From: Mycolicibacter longobardus
GTDB taxonomy: Bacteria > Actinomycetota > Actinomycetes > Mycobacteriales > Mycobacteriaceae
NCBI RefSeq assembly: GCF_002102265.1
Contig: NZ_LQPG01000038.1
Location: 1 to 32,000, forward strand
Reading direction: 5' to 3'
Length of the DNA stretch: 32,000 nucleotides
Positions 28,125 through 32,000 of this stretch are shown here, piece by piece. The notes under the pieces were generated by a model. The model was not told the origin of the DNA, ran no database searches, and saw only the letters and a program-made list of their open reading frames with translations. The position numbers and the translations under genes are program-made. The first letter of the stretch is position 1. The number at the start of each line of letters is the position of its first letter.

Positions 28125-30437
28125 ATGATGCAGTTGGCGCTTCGCCCGTACGTCACCCCCGGCGTCGCCATTGCGGGTGCCGCCTTAATTGCGGTTAACG
28201 CCGCGGTCCCCACCGCGGTCCTGAGGCACCCCGCCGAGGCCCGCCAGGCGCTACAGAGCGTCGAGCGCCATGCTGTCCAGCTCACGGCGGACTTCTTTGG
28301 GCCGTGGACGGACCTGTTCACCAACACCACCGCCAACCTGGTGGCGATGGGGTCCGACAACGGCTGGGGAAATCTGTTCGAGCAGATCTTCACCGACCCG
28401 AGCTCGCTGAGCCGGCTGCCCGAGGTCTTCGACTGGCTGGGCAGCATCATGCCGCAGGTCAGCGGCAGCGACCCGATCATGATCCTGCTCTCGCCGATCC
28501 TGACGATCGGGATGGGCTTCATCGGCCCGATGATCACGGTGCACGACGCCTATCAGGACATCCTCAACCAGATCTTCAACCCGAGTGACCCGCTCGACCC
28601 GTTCGCGGCGATGTTCACCGCGCCGGCGCGACTGCTCGACGCCTACCTCAACGGCACGAGCACCGTCGATGTGCTCGGCATCCAGGTCCCCGCCTTCAAC
28701 GGAATCCTGGTCCCCGGCCAGAACCTGGTCATCGACATGACCGCGGGCGATCTGGTCAACGAGCTGAACATCGGCAACGAGACCATCTCCAGCCTGCTCG
28801 ACCAGACCGGGATCGGCACCCTGTCGATCGCGGACATGCTGACCGGCGTGCTGGACGCCGTCGGTCTCGGCGACCAGACCCCTGTCGACCTGCTCGACAC
28901 GCTCGGGCTCGGCGACCTGGAGGTCGCCAGCGTGTTGTCGACCTTGACCGACGCGCTGGGCATCGGCAACCCCACCATCGCCGACATCATGGACCAGATC
29001 GGCATCGGCAACGTTCAGGTCGCCGACCTGGTGATCGACTTCACCGAGGCGCTGGGCTTCAACAACCCGACCATCAACGACATCGCCGGCGACGTCGGCC
29101 TGGCCGACCTCAAGTTGGCCGACCTGGGTATGACGGTGTTCAACGCCCTGGGCATCGGTGACCCGACGGTCAGCGGCCTGCTCGACACGATCGGCGCCGG
29201 CGACCTGACGCTGAACGGCCTGCTGACCACCGCGGTCGACGCGCTGGGCCTCGGCGGCTCCACACCGGCGACCCTGCTCGACGCGATGGGCATCGGCCAA
29301 CAGACCACCCACGAGTTCGTGGGCTCGCTCCTCAACGGCTTGGGCCTGGGCAACCAGACCATCATGGACCTGCTGAGTCAGGCCGGCCTGGCCGACGCCG
29401 ACCTCGGCGCACTGGCTGCCGCTGTCCTCGGCCCTGCGGGCGACACCTCGATGGCCGACGTTCTCGACTATGCGGGCTTCGGCACCGTCACGGTCAAGGA
29501 CCTCACCGACCTGATGGGCCTCACCAACTTCTCGCTGGGCGCGCTGGTCGGCAACCTGAACAGCATGGGGCTGATCGGCAACCTCACCATCGACGACTTC
29601 CTCGCCGCCTCCGGCGCCACGCCGCTGGACAAGGGCGGCGACACAACGCTGGCCTCAGCGCTGGCCGGAACGACCATCGGCAGCATTCTGGAAGACCAGG
29701 GCATGTTGAACTCGCCACTCATTTCGCTGCTCGGCGACATGGGCAACCAATCGCTGGTCGAAGTGATCCAGGCCAACTTCTCGATGACGCTGGGCGACAT
29801 GCTCCTTCAGGGCGGTATGGGCGACCAGACCCTGAGCGAGCTGGTGCTGTCGAGCCTGCCCAACCAGCCGCTGTCGGAGTTGCTCGGAGTGATGGGCAAC
29901 ACCACCCTCGCCCAGCTGATCGACCAGATGGTGCCGTCCAACGTGACCATCGTCGACATGCTCAACGACGCGGGCATCGGCGACCAGCACCTGTCCGACC
30001 TGCTCAACCAGTTCCTCGGTGACCAGACCGTGGCCAACGCGCTCGACGACGGCGGCCTGGGCAGCATGCACCTCAACGACATCATCAGCCAGGCGCTGGG
30101 CACCCAGAGCCTCAACGACATGCTCAACGAGTTCGGCATCGGCGGTCAGTCGCTCAGCGACCTGTTCGACCAGTTCTTCGGCACCACGACCATCAGTGAG
30201 GCGTTCGCCGGCCTGGGCAGCCAGACCCTGAACGAGCTGGTCGACTCGCTGTTCGGGTCCGCGACCCTGAGTTCACTGCTCGGCGACTTCGGCGCCCAGA
30301 CCGTCGACGAGTTGCTCGCCTCGCTGGGCCTGGGTGATCTCACCCTGATCAACGCGCAGATCGAAGAGTTCTTCGGCTCGATGGCCTACTTCATCGACGG
30401 CCTGCCGAACCAGATTGCGGAGATCCTCGGTGGCTAA
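28125..30437 (+). CDS. Highly acidic Asp/Leu/Gly repeat protein with N-terminal hydrophobic anchor/signal; unknown family
   Basis: 770 aa. GGAGAG (28117-28122) precedes the tandem ATGs at 28125/28128; 28128 (MQLALRPYVT) matches the paralogue's start and has the better spacing. The architecture is an N-terminal hydrophobic segment (VAIAGAALIAVNAAVP), a ~190-aa conserved domain, then about 550 aa of 12-18-residue repeats. TAA stop at 30435-30437. Confidence 0.85.
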   Translation: MMQLALRPYVTPGVAIAGAALIAVNAAVPTAVLRHPAEARQALQSVERHAVQLTADFFGPWTDLFTNTTANLVAMGSDNGWGNLFEQIFTDPSSLSRLPEVFDWLGSIMPQVSGSDPIMILLSPILTIGMGFIGPMITVHDAYQDILNQIFNPSDPLDPFAAMFTAPARLLDAYLNGTSTVDVLGIQVPAFNGILVPGQNLVIDMTAGDLVNELNIGNETISSLLDQTGIGTLSIADMLTGVLDAVGLGDQTPVDLLDTLGLGDLEVASVLSTLTDALGIGNPTIADIMDQIGIGNVQVADLVIDFTEALGFNNPTINDIAGDVGLADLKLADLGMTVFNALGIGDPTVSGLLDTIGAGDLTLNGLLTTAVDALGLGGSTPATLLDAMGIGQQTTHEFVGSLLNGLGLGNQTIMDLLSQAGLADADLGALAAAVLGPAGDTSMADVLDYAGFGTVTVKDLTDLMGLTNFSLGALVGNLNSMGLIGNLTIDDFLAASGATPLDKGGDTTLASALAGTTIGSILEDQGMLNSPLISLLGDMGNQSLVEVIQANFSMTLGDMLLQGGMGDQTLSELVLSSLPNQPLSELLGVMGNTTLAQLIDQMVPSNVTIVDMLNDAGIGDQHLSDLLNQFLGDQTVANALDDGGLGSMHLNDIISQALGTQSLNDMLNEFGIGGQSLSDLFDQFFGTTTISEAFAGLGSQTLNELVDSLFGSATLSSLLGDFGAQTVDELLASLGLGDLTLINAQIEEFFGSMAYFIDGLPNQIAEILGG
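28770..29441 (+). repeat. Seven consecutive 96-nt (32-aa) super-repeats, each an alternating 14-aa + 18-aa unit
   Basis: Across aa 216-439, the 14-aa units are IGNETISSLLDQTG, LGDQTPVDLLDTLG, IGNPTIADIMDQIG, FNNPTINDIAGDVG, IGDPTVSGLLDTIG, LGGSTPATLLDAMG and LGNQTIMDLLSQAG. The 18-aa units are IGTLSIADMLTGVLDAVG, LGDLEVASVLSTLTDALG, IGNVQVADLVIDFTEALG, LADLKLADLGMTVFNALG, AGDLTLNGLLTTAVDALG, IGQQTTHEFVGSLLNGLG and LADADLGALAAAVLGPAG. The two unit types alternate strictly. Confidence 0.9.
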
Positions 30438-30477
30438 GCGACAAGACAACTTCGGAACTTCTGTCCGGGAGGGCATC

Positions 30478-32000
30478 ATGCAGCAAACACTTCGTCCGTA
30501 CGTCACCACCGGGCTGGCGATCGTCGGTGTGGGCCTGGTCGCCGCGCCGCCGGTCGCGTCGCACCTGCCGCAGCTGCAGCATGAGCTTGCGGTCGTCCAG
30601 CAGCGGGACGTGGTGCTGACGGACTTCTTCTCGCCCTGGACGGACCTGTTCGCCAACACCACCGCCAACCTGCAGGCGCTGAACCAGAACTCAGTCGACA
30701 TGTGGGGGCTGATGGTTCATATCTTCACCAACCCCCAGCAGGCGCTGGCCGGCATCCCGGACGTCATCAACATCTTCACCAACCCGCTGCCCGGCCTTGA
30801 CGTTCAGGCATTGCCCTTCCCGGTCGATGTCGACCTGCAACTGCCGCTCTGGGCGACTTCGCTGCTCACCAGCATGGGCCCGATGATCAACGTCTTCAAC
30901 GCGATGCAGCAGCTGATACAGCAGATCTTCGACTTCAGCGACCCGATGGGGGCGCTCTCCGCCCTGATGGGCGCGCCGGCGACCCTGCTGGACGCCTTCC
31001 TCAACGGCTCCTCCAGCTTCGACTTTCTGGGCTTCAGCATCCCGCTGTTCAACGGGATCCTCACCCCGGCTCAGCCCGGCATCAGCATTGACATCGGCAC
31101 CATTGTCGACGCCTCCGGCCTGGGCAACTCGACCATTACCGACCTGCTCACCCAGGCCGGTATCGGCGACACGCCGCTGGACACGTTGATCATCGATCTG
31201 CTCGACCAGGTCGGCTATGGCCACATGACGCCGGTGGACCTGCTCGAAGAGTTCGGGATCGGCACGGAGAGCCTGTCCAACCTGCTGATCGGACTGTTCA
31301 ACGAGGCGGGAATCGGCAACCCGACGATCGCCGACCTGCTGACCGACCTCGGCGGCATCAGCCCGGACGACTCGATCGCGAGCCTGTTGATCGCCCTGCT
31401 CAACTCCCCGGAAGTCGGGATCGGCAACCCCACCCTCTCCGAGCTGATCCTCGGCTTGGTCGGCGGCGACGACCAGACCGTGGGCGGGCTGATCAAGGAT
31501 CTGCTCGGCGCTCAGGGCAGCGAGTCCCTGTCCAGCCTGGTCGACCCGACCTGGACTGTCGGTGGCCTGCTGCGGGACTCGATGGGCAACCCGCCGCTGA
31601 CCGAGTTCTTCGAGCAGATCGGCCTGGGCGGCATCACTGTCGGCTCGCTCACCGGCATCTTGGGCGAGTACGGCGACCAGACGCTGATCGAGCTGATGAA
31701 CGAAGGCTTCCTCGGCCCGGATATCACCGGTGGCACCGGACTGCTCGAGCTGTTGTCTTCCTTCTTCCCGCCCGGCAGCACCCTCGGTGACCTGCTCGGC
31801 CCCATGGCCACTCAGACAGTCGGCGAGTTGCTGGAGTCGATGCCGGTCGGTGAGAACGAACTCGGCATCGACCCGCTCACCCCGCTGACCGACATCAGGT
31901 TCACCCAGCTGATGACGATCGCCGGTATGGGCGACACGCCGCTGGCCGAGCTCTCCCCGGAGAACGCCAGCCTGATCAATAAGATCGGAAACCCCACCCT
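30478..32000 (+). CDS. Paralogue of the acidic Asp/Leu/Gly repeat protein, 3'-truncated by the window edge
   Basis: ATG 30478 is preceded by GGGAGGG (30465-30471), 40 nt after the upstream stop. Frame 1 is open to the end of the window, which is why it is absent from the ORF track. Translation starts MQQTLRPYVTTGLAIVGVGLVAAPP...DFFSPWTDLFANTTANL...MGPMINVFNAMQQLIQQIFDFSDP...APATLLDAFLNGSS...PLFNGILTP. The same 14/18-aa repeats follow: LGNSTITDLLTQAG, IGDTPLDTLIIDLLDQVG, YGHMTPVDLLEEFG, IGTESLSNLLIGLFNEAG, IGNPTIADLLTDLG... Confidence 0.85.
   Translation, partial: MQQTLRPYVTTGLAIVGVGLVAAPPVASHLPQLQHELAVVQQRDVVLTDFFSPWTDLFANTTANLQALNQNSVDMWGLMVHIFTNPQQALAGIPDVINIFTNPLPGLDVQALPFPVDVDLQLPLWATSLLTSMGPMINVFNAMQQLIQQIFDFSDPMGALSALMGAPATLLDAFLNGSSSFDFLGFSIPLFNGILTPAQPGISIDIGTIVDASGLGNSTITDLLTQAGIGDTPLDTLIIDLLDQVGYGHMTPVDLLEEFGIGTESLSNLLIGLFNEAGIGNPTIADLLTDLGGISPDDSIASLLIALLNSPEVGIGNPTLSELILGLVGGDDQTVGGLIKDLLGAQGSESLSSLVDPTWTVGGLLRDSMGNPPLTEFFEQIGLGGITVGSLTGILGEYGDQTLIELMNEGFLGPDITGGTGLLELLSSFFPPGSTLGDLLGPMATQTVGELLESMPVGENELGIDPLTPLTDIRFTQLMTIAGMGDTPLAELSPENASLINKIGNPT

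Follow-up and report, generated by a model that had tools for sequence, protein, structure and literature searches.

What could be the role of two adjacent genes that encode long, extremely acidic repeat proteins in a mycobacterial genome? The question is raised by a 32,000-nt stretch of DNA (positions 1-32000; the window) from Mycolicibacter longobardus, a soil mycobacterium, in which an initial annotation had noted a tandem pair of very acidic, N-terminally anchored proteins of no family that it could name. These two genes, open reading frames 1 and 2 (ORF1 and ORF2), exemplify the first and the second gene of a conserved pair, referred to here as A and B; loci in other assemblies carry L-numbers and proteins carry P-numbers. 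Taken together, the observations suggest that A and B are an ancient pair of exported, probably heteromeric envelope proteins that serve as scaffold or partner for giant glycine-rich proteins. We offer this as a tentative answer, to which we would give somewhat less than an even chance.

Anatomy of the two proteins and relatives of the head domain

Both genes lie on the same strand where they had first been placed (Table 1), with a 40-nt spacer between them and a good Shine-Dalgarno site before each, according to the ORF listing and to reading of the sequence. Their products are paralogues, as proposed (37% identity, E 3e-61), and all the sequence blocks quoted in the initial annotation were found in them. 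Each protein consists of a hydrophobic N-terminus, a head domain of ~160 aa and ~530 aa of diverged 14/18-residue repeats. The ORF1 product is identical (100%) to ORW08208.1 (AWC16_19870) of M. longobardus, and the first 507 residues of P0278 (792 aa) are identical to the translation of ORF2 in the window. Because the family consensus puts Arg at position 6, the second ATG of ORF1 (28128) is the likelier start. Both proteins are as acidic as had been supposed: ORF1 has 88 Asp and Glu and 9 Lys and Arg (net charge -79) and ORF2 has 93 and 9 (net charge ~-80), and our own estimates put their isoelectric points (pI) at ~3.1 and ~3.0. Neither contains any Cys, and no YxxxD/E motif (Y...[DE]) was matched in either. 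No PE, PPE or PGRS domain was found in either protein by Pfam searches at E up to 1, in agreement with the view that these are not PE, PPE or MPTR proteins; only chance matches were returned (RelA_AH_RIS, HTH_AraC and others), far under cut-off.

The head domain has relatives that can be named. The NCBIfam model NF033942 ('outer membrane porin GjpA') scores 26.6 bits with the ORF1 head domain and 32.8 bits with ORF2, with only model positions 1-60 matched and both proteins under the curated cut-off of 100 bits. When 36 A/B head domains were compared with 54 GjpA-like proteins by hhalign, the two families aligned at 99.9% (E 5.6e-34, 189 columns), with query residues 2-199 against GjpA-like family positions 1-250. 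By this profile alignment the head domain is a distant member of the GjpA superfamily, outside the curated subfamily. That superfamily is already named and scarcely studied, so the description as belonging to no family fails for the head domain and stands for the repeat array, for which no Pfam, PDB or other family was found.

A word-indexed protein search had recovered 3 relatives only; an exhaustive HMMER search with the head-domain profile gave 283 proteins, 15 of them long and repeat-bearing (E < 1e-30). The other relatives, among the matches listed, are mostly 300-500 aa long and usually acidic, and have their N-terminus in common with ORF1 and ORF2. Within alignment A4 (108 members, both window head domains included; 107 are relatives of ORF1), 80 members match NF033942 GjpA, the best at 1e-114. 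With a 108-sequence alignment AlphaFold2 predicts that residues 1-230 fold into a bundle of five helices and two small hairpins (mean predicted local distance difference test score, pLDDT, 78; 94-96 at residues 130-180), and a Foldseek search of the PDB with the head-domain model found nothing with E < 1. Jimenez-Galisteo et al. reportedly described GjpA in 2017 as a cell-wall channel-forming protein of Gordonia jacobaea. It was isolated as a cell-wall channel former, according to the work cited as reference 14 in PMC9854905.

The wider profile also drew in PE-domain proteins. PE_PGRS C-terminal domains, represented by three PE sequences in the profile, align with the GjpA-like family at 99.3% (E 1e-20, 199 columns), and the alignment begins right after the hydrophobic leader. 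Compared directly, the A/B head and the PE C-domain align at 67.7% probability (E 4.9e-5) over only 78 columns, again with three PE sequences in the profile. One of the PE-domain proteins, P0237, adjoins pheT, a Rv1648-like gene and an adenylate cyclase gene, a neighbourhood that corresponds on the H37Rv gene map to the locus of Rv1651c (PE_PGRS30). At L022 (M. tuberculosis WUJN01000040.1) the PE_PGRS gene occupies 5001-6785 and is preceded by bacA, ilvG and secA2, as on the PE_PGRS33 side, and followed by pheT (frameshifted), a Rv1648-like gene and the cyclase, as on the PE_PGRS30 side. As its 5' part derives from the neighbourhood of PE_PGRS33, this assembly is probably a chimera, or else a recombinant across PGRS repeats. 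The PE_PGRS30 C-domain is 306 aa long, of unknown function and homologous to the C-terminus of Rv3812, which on the same authority carries a domain of this type (PMC4229189, PMC7550000). It is not surface-exposed and is placed "in the periplasm or tightly embedded in the mycomembrane" (PMC4229189).

The N-terminal signal or anchor segment proposed for both proteins agrees with several observations. Residues 1-29 contain the most hydrophobic 19-residue window of ORF1, and AlphaFold2 models residues 7-26 as a lone helix, with ~30 residues of disordered linker after it. The motif M-Q-x-A-L-R-P-Y-x-T-A-G-V-A-L-V-G-A-x-x-I-A-V-T-P is near-invariant, being 80-93% conserved at many positions (129 of 150 representatives at 50% identity); a longer leader form across these 129 of 150 reads MQxALRPYxTAGVALVGAxxIAVTPVAPPxPD. 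The GjpA motif MQxxLRPYxTAGxAxxGAxxIAxTP is found in both ORF1 and ORF2. Such conservation is far above that of an ordinary signal peptide and unusual for one. PE-fused versions of the head domain do not have the LRPY motif. Strong conservation of the leader and its absence from the PE-fused versions fit a role in targeting or anchoring, and LRPYxTAG may serve Mycobacteriales as a specific signal for sorting or anchoring. No lipobox Cys and no twin arginine were found in the leader, which has a single Arg.

The repeats, too, are real. Their consensus is (L/I)G(N/D)xT(I/L)xDLLxxxG, with 14- and 18-residue units alternating in the first half; autocorrelation peaks at 32 residues (14+18) over residues 216-480 and at ~13-14 residues over 630-736, and a profile finds many internal repeat matches. 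At the DNA level Tandem Repeats Finder detected no tandem repeat, and the copies are therefore taken to be old and diverged. The full-length AlphaFold2 model (22-sequence alignment, pLDDT 61; ~40-70 in the repeats) predicts ~38 short helices, in which lengths of 7 and 11 residues alternate and which are joined by 6-residue G-x-G-D/N-x-T loops, which agrees at low confidence with the solenoid suggested earlier. No Pfam family matches the array, and PDB sequence searches with ORF1 and with an 18-orthologue profile gave nothing significant; the best PDB profile match was the helix-hairpin-helix (HhH) domain of RadA (E 0.29, not significant). Foldseek with the full model found nothing with E < 1 in the PDB. 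A search with the repeats only returned mainly the same protein family, 740-845 aa long, from Mycolicibacter and Mycobacterium species. Its weak tail consisted of fragments from assemblies and of P0297, a single shorter variant (443 aa, E 2.8e-5) in which the repeats stand behind a different N-terminus and a head domain is not recognisable.

After the array comes an element of 34 aa that was missing from the initial annotation. Its pLDDT of 72-83 is the highest of the C-terminal half. Weak alignments tie it to the closing element of the GjpA-like domain (E 5e-3) and to the very end of the PE_PGRS30 C-domain (E 6e-4). Given that it aligns to the final element of the domain, the repeat array looks like an insertion within the head domain, a suggestion that we make from the alignments.

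Database names point elsewhere. The 769-aa form of ORF1 is entered in RefSeq as WP_264017272.1, 'autotransporter outer membrane beta-barrel domain-containing protein', a name that was rejected, there being no Pfam autotransporter match and only a short strand and helix at the C-terminus of the AlphaFold2 model. Several relatives are named 'PE-PGRS family protein' in UniRef, and neither the domain searches nor the structure model agree with this.

Conservation of the pair and its gene neighbourhood

The conservation scan used one genome per species and yielded 17 loci, all from Mycolicibacter or M. terrae-complex species. The gene order is aminotransferase, FAAL (fatty acyl-AMP ligase), A, B in 17 of 17, and both genes are intact in the 17 species (A 767-780 aa, B 793-802 aa); the pair is thus neither pseudogenised in relatives nor confined to this genome, two outcomes that the initial annotation would have counted against itself. 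Eighteen A orthologues align nearly gap-free. The ratio of nonsynonymous to synonymous substitution rates (dN/dS) is 0.45-0.66 for the head domain and repeat array of A (ORF1) and 0.34-0.51 for B (ORF2), compared with ~0.3 for FAAL and 0.07-0.13 for the aminotransferase; values of ~1.0 are reached when the A repeat array is compared with that of L014, the most distant orthologue, and by the short C-terminal element in one comparison. By these ratios A and B are real genes that evolve fast and are mostly constrained, as is often the case with surface proteins.

When 16 proteins from 8 loci are placed in a neighbour-joining tree, all first genes stand apart from all second genes, which implies that the duplication that gave rise to A and B predates these lineages. 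Across the loci A consistently precedes B, at a distance of ~28-67 nt. An old duplication with an order so maintained points to non-redundant, probably joint action. One protein, P0005 (1287 aa; L018 10001-13864, Mycobacterium sp., after clpC1), has head domains at 7-245 and 646-864 and is a fusion of A and B; it stands in another genomic setting, without FAAL and without a giant neighbour. In M. terrae the A gene looks pseudogenised (P0003, P0235), a reading that was rejected because housekeeping neighbours are fragmented in the same assembly. At this locus (L026, AP022564.1) the DUF6541, aminotransferase, FAAL, A and giant genes are all split; the assembly is full of frameshifts, and short 'hypothetical proteins' like P0003 and P0235 are artefacts of it.

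Of the neighbouring genes, the giant gene downstream is a more constant partner of the pair than FAAL. A giant gene on the same strand lies directly after B, at a gap of ~35-130 nt, in L003, L004, L006, L008, L012, L016, L020, L021, L023, L024 and L025, and one follows every A/B pair that has enough flanking sequence, the exception being the fused variant P0005. The encoded proteins have at least 1000-2400 aa and 43-47% Gly, are acidic and start with RRxxGAG(S/T)AVGAFLAFG...AQA|D, a signal peptide. The initial annotation had rightly named FAAL as a neighbour and had missed this stronger association. The contig of M. longobardus (33092 nt) stops ~240 nt past ORF2, as expected if the assembly broke in a giant glycine-rich repeat gene. 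Giants of the same family also occur elsewhere in the window: the one at 5503-17262 scores 26.6 bits with Pfam PGRS (cut-off 27), has no PE domain and carries an Arg-rich signal peptide, and it begins with RRRSNRVLGAGSAVGAFLTFGMAPL...ANA|D, much like the giants downstream of B at other loci. Looking for PGRS in the M. terrae complex gave no result. At the second pair of strain SMC-14 (L021) giants flank both sides.

FAAL precedes the pair in 17 of 17 loci from Mycolicibacter and also in L020, L023 and L024; it is absent from L021, L025 and the locus of the fused P0005. It is therefore a frequent but dispensable neighbour: the co-occurrence proposed for gene pair and FAAL holds in these Mycolicibacter loci, and an obligatory link does not. 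Between FAAL and ORF1 lies the AT-rich spacer described earlier, 300 nt with 49-54% GC as against ~68% for the genome. In an alignment of this spacer from 18 orthologous loci, the only strongly conserved parts are the Shine-Dalgarno site and a promoter-like block, which makes it probable that the pair is driven by a promoter of its own and is not a mere extension of the FAAL gene. A strict scan for sigma-70 promoters and terminators called no promoter, the block at 28061-28089 included.

Table 1. Features of the window and giant genes next to A/B pairs at other loci.
Locus	Feature	Positions	Strand	Details and basis
Window	Second giant glycine-rich ORF	1..4785	+	Frame 1, open from base 1; open at left window end
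Window	Giant glycine-rich PGRS-like secreted protein	5503..17262	+	3919 aa, 40% Gly, pI ~3.4; translation, composition
Window	FAAL, fatty acyl-AMP ligase	25806..27824	+	True start probably near 25920; Pfam AMP-binding E 4e-67; NCBIfam FAAL models to E 1e-126
Window	Promoter-like block before ORF1 (putative function)	28061..28089	+	-35-like TTAGACA 28061-28067; -10-like TAAGTT 28084-28089
Window	Shine-Dalgarno AGGAGA of ORF1	28117..28122	+	Sequence reading; invariant in 18 loci
Window	ORF1, A-type	28125..30437	+	770 aa, or 769 aa from second ATG (28128); ORF listing
Window	N-terminal conserved hydrophobic motif, residues 1-29	28125..28211	+	M(M)QLALRPYVTPGVAIAGAALIAVNAAVP; signal or anchor segment
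Window	GjpA-like head domain, first part, residues ~55-205	28287..28739	+	Five-helix bundle and beta hairpins; hhalign, AlphaFold2
Window	Acidic repeat array, residues 206-736	28740..30332	+	~38 helix-loop units; autocorrelation, unit splitting
Window	Conserved C-terminal strand-helix element, residues 737-770	30333..30434	+	...INAQIEEFFGSMAYFIDGLPNQIAEILGG; kept in all orthologues
Window	Shine-Dalgarno GGGAGGG of ORF2	30467..30473	+	Sequence reading
Window	ORF2, B-type	30478..32000, past window end	+	Full protein 792 aa, predicted end near 32856; translation
L003, L004, L006, L008, L012, L016	Downstream giant	from ~14800		
L020	Downstream giant	6692-7504		
L021	Giants	741-7028 and 12340-22256		
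L023	Giant	12325-22265		
L024	Downstream giant	12575-19977		
L025	Downstream giant	11177-14260		

Further upstream, window positions 19235-25589 match the arabinogalactan block Rv3783 to Rv3778c of M. tuberculosis, with genes for rfbD (ABC-2 permease), glfT1 (GT2), rfbE (ABC ATPase), bpa (proteasome activator), DUF6541 and a class-V aminotransferase. The listed Bpa ORF (21801-23060, 419 aa) overlaps DUF6541, and the real Bpa gene is therefore probably much shorter. A PIN-domain (VapC-like) toxin ORF at 17615-17998 (+) lies between the giant gene and this block; a possible antitoxin ORF occupies 17183-17551. In L011-L015 a second, divergently oriented FAAL paralogue (47-52% identity) is found between the first FAAL and the A gene. 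A search of window positions 17000-32000 with Rfam found nothing.

Possible roles of the pair

Where would A and B act? An exported or envelope-associated location, as the initial annotation proposed, is the best reading of the sequences, and we infer it from the homology to the GjpA family, from the tie through GjpA to the C-domain of PE_PGRS30, which is exported by ESX-5, and from the hydrophobic N-terminus. The head-type domain is delivered in two ways, in some proteins with an LRPY hydrophobic segment in front of it and in others with a PE-PGRS export module. In PE_PGRS30 it is fused to PGRS, and here it is encoded beside PGRS-like genes; this argument of the Rosetta-stone type is the main one for a functional link between the pair and the giants. 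On this basis the LRPY segment (MQxxLRPYxTxGxAxxGAxxIAxxP) would carry A and B across the plasma membrane or anchor them in it, and the GjpA-like head would contact the envelope or mycomembrane. The acidic array of ~530 residues would leave and re-enter the head domain as an insertion and present an extended, possibly cation-bridged solenoid surface. A and B would then act jointly outside the cytoplasm, probably as a heteromer, as scaffold or anchor for the downstream PGRS-like giants of Sec/Tat type.

Several observations weigh against this proposal. First, the repeat-region model is predicted at low confidence (pLDDT 40-70), the alignment behind the idea of a repeat insertion is short and weak, and an AxA cleavage site is not obvious at the N-terminus. 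Second, the association with giants has gaps: the two giant genes of the window (1-17262) have no adjacent pair, the fused P0005 has no giant neighbour, and a short GjpA-like gene (P0178) stands alone. Third, the giant proteins are acidic as well, so that direct binding to A/B would need cations or non-electrostatic contacts. Finally, deletion of the PE_PGRS30 C-domain altered neither localisation nor virulence (PMC4229189, PMC7550000).

Could the pair instead form a channel? A GjpA-like hetero-oligomeric pore of the mycomembrane for small solutes, made cation-selective by its negative charge, would draw on the homology of the head domain to a family that NCBI names 'outer membrane porin GjpA' and on a second, moderately hydrophobic stretch at residues 118-140. 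Hetero-oligomeric cell-wall channels occur in Nocardia (Klackta et al., 2011, as cited in reference 12 of PMC4559739). We nevertheless consider a channel unlikely: the scores of 26.6 and 32.8 bits compare with a cut-off of 100, AlphaFold2 predicts a soluble-looking helical bundle plus solenoid with no barrel or membrane-spanning pore, and 530 residues of repeats would be left unexplained. The porin assignment of GjpA is itself based solely on lipid-bilayer reconstitution, and GjpA is reportedly anion-selective.

The charge of the proteins invites another explanation, in which the pair is a free-standing cation sink or buffer of the envelope whose acidic G-x-G-D/N-x-T loops bind Ca2+ or Mg2+, with the giants not involved. 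A net charge of ~-80, ~90 Asp/Glu per protein and Asp or Asn at fixed loop positions are what such a role would call for. The proteins do not match RTX, EF-hand, dockerin or other known Ca2+-binding families, however, and neither the conserved A/B pairing nor the constant giant neighbour would be accounted for, which makes this explanation improbable in our view.

A bolder idea is that the GjpA-like domain is a dedicated module for mycomembrane insertion or translocation of PGRS-type proteins, working in trans in Mycolicibacter and in cis in PE_PGRS30. A and B would serve giant Sec/Tat-exported, non-PE PGRS-like proteins, with the acidic solenoid spanning the periplasm, in a mycobacterial counterpart of two-partner or autotransporter secretion. 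We regard this as quite unlikely to be correct.

There is also a small chance that the pair belongs to a FAAL-dependent lipid pathway, in which a fatty acid activated by FAAL is attached to, carried by or exported with A/B. FAAL is immediately upstream in 17 of 17 Mycolicibacter loci plus L020, L023 and L024, and the locus lies among arabinogalactan and arabinan genes. Yet ORF1 has its own conserved promoter-like block after the 300-nt spacer, the pairs of L021 and L025 and the fused P0005 do without FAAL, and no gene for a carrier protein, a polyketide synthase or a nonribosomal peptide synthetase was found nearby. A and B have no Cys, which excludes classic lipoprotein acylation.

It is very unlikely that A and B are cytoplasmic proteins with HhH-like repeats, acting as nucleic-acid mimic or protein scaffold and with an N-terminus that is no export signal: their G(I/L)G hairpins do resemble HhH motifs and the RadA HhH domain is the only PDB sequence match, but that match (E 0.29) is not significant, Pfam HHH models are unmatched, the spacing past the G-h-G hairpin is by our reading one residue off the HhH consensus, the hydrophobic N-terminal motif is conserved and the head domain is homologous to a domain exported by ESX-5.

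[quoted passage not shown] In the literature searched, no paper linking the three was found. As far as databases and literature were searched, there is no description of the array of repeats, of A and B as a pair, of their association with giant PGRS-like proteins outside the PE family or of the tie to PE_PGRS30/Rv3812. The link between the domain and glycine-rich surface proteins would be directly testable in a fast, non-pathogenic relative. Should the translocation idea be true, it would provide a starting point for explaining how large proteins exported by Sec get across the mycomembrane, and a function for the PE_PGRS30/PE39 C-terminal domain. The importance of these points is limited by the narrow taxonomic range of the clade and by the inferred nature of all functional statements.

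Comparison with known systems

How do A and B compare with repeat and envelope proteins that are already described? HhH proteins likewise have short helices joined by G-hydrophobic-G hairpins; A and B differ in being extremely acidic and in having a 14/18 alternation instead of the (HhH)2 unit, and a reading as HhH repeats was rejected for lack of a Pfam HHH match, with the RadA match at E 0.29. The GGxGxDxUx nonapeptides of RTX beta-rolls gave no Pfam match, and the A/B repeats are predicted to be helical.

With GjpA the proteins have in common the N-terminal motif MQxxLRPYxTAGxAxxGA, a helical domain of ~200-250 aa and the blocks PWxDLFxNTxxNL, GP..., APAxLxxAFLNG and GGLLxP; both are acidic and both are restricted to Mycobacteriales. 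ORF1 and ORF2 are, however, about twice as long and contain a repeat array of ~530 aa, where GjpA-like proteins end in low-complexity tails. They also occur in conserved A/B pairs beside giant glycine-rich genes, whereas the short GjpA-like P0178 is a singleton (one context examined).

The likeness to two-partner secretion and autotransporters of Gram-negative bacteria is a functional analogy only. There, too, accessory envelope genes lie beside the gene for a giant, repetitive exoprotein with a signal peptide, and the analogy extends to a fused version in another lineage, here PE_PGRS30. A and B differ from those systems in having no homology to them and no beta-barrel or POTRA domain, and their genes are upstream and in two copies. 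In addition, the localisation of PE_PGRS30 is undisturbed by deletion of its C-domain (PMC4229189).

Another parallel is offered by PE_PGRS30 (Rv1651c) and Rv3812 (PE_PGRS62/PE39), whose domain would belong, via the GjpA-like profile, to the same superfamily as the A/B head and is tied to glycine-rich repeats of the PGRS type. In M. tuberculosis PE_PGRS30 this domain is C-terminal, lacks the LRPY segment, is exported by way of PE and ESX-5 and is fused to PGRS in one chain. In A and B, by contrast, it is N-terminal, has its own hydrophobic leader, appears to hold the acidic repeats as an insertion, and is encoded beside a glycine-rich protein rather than fused to one.

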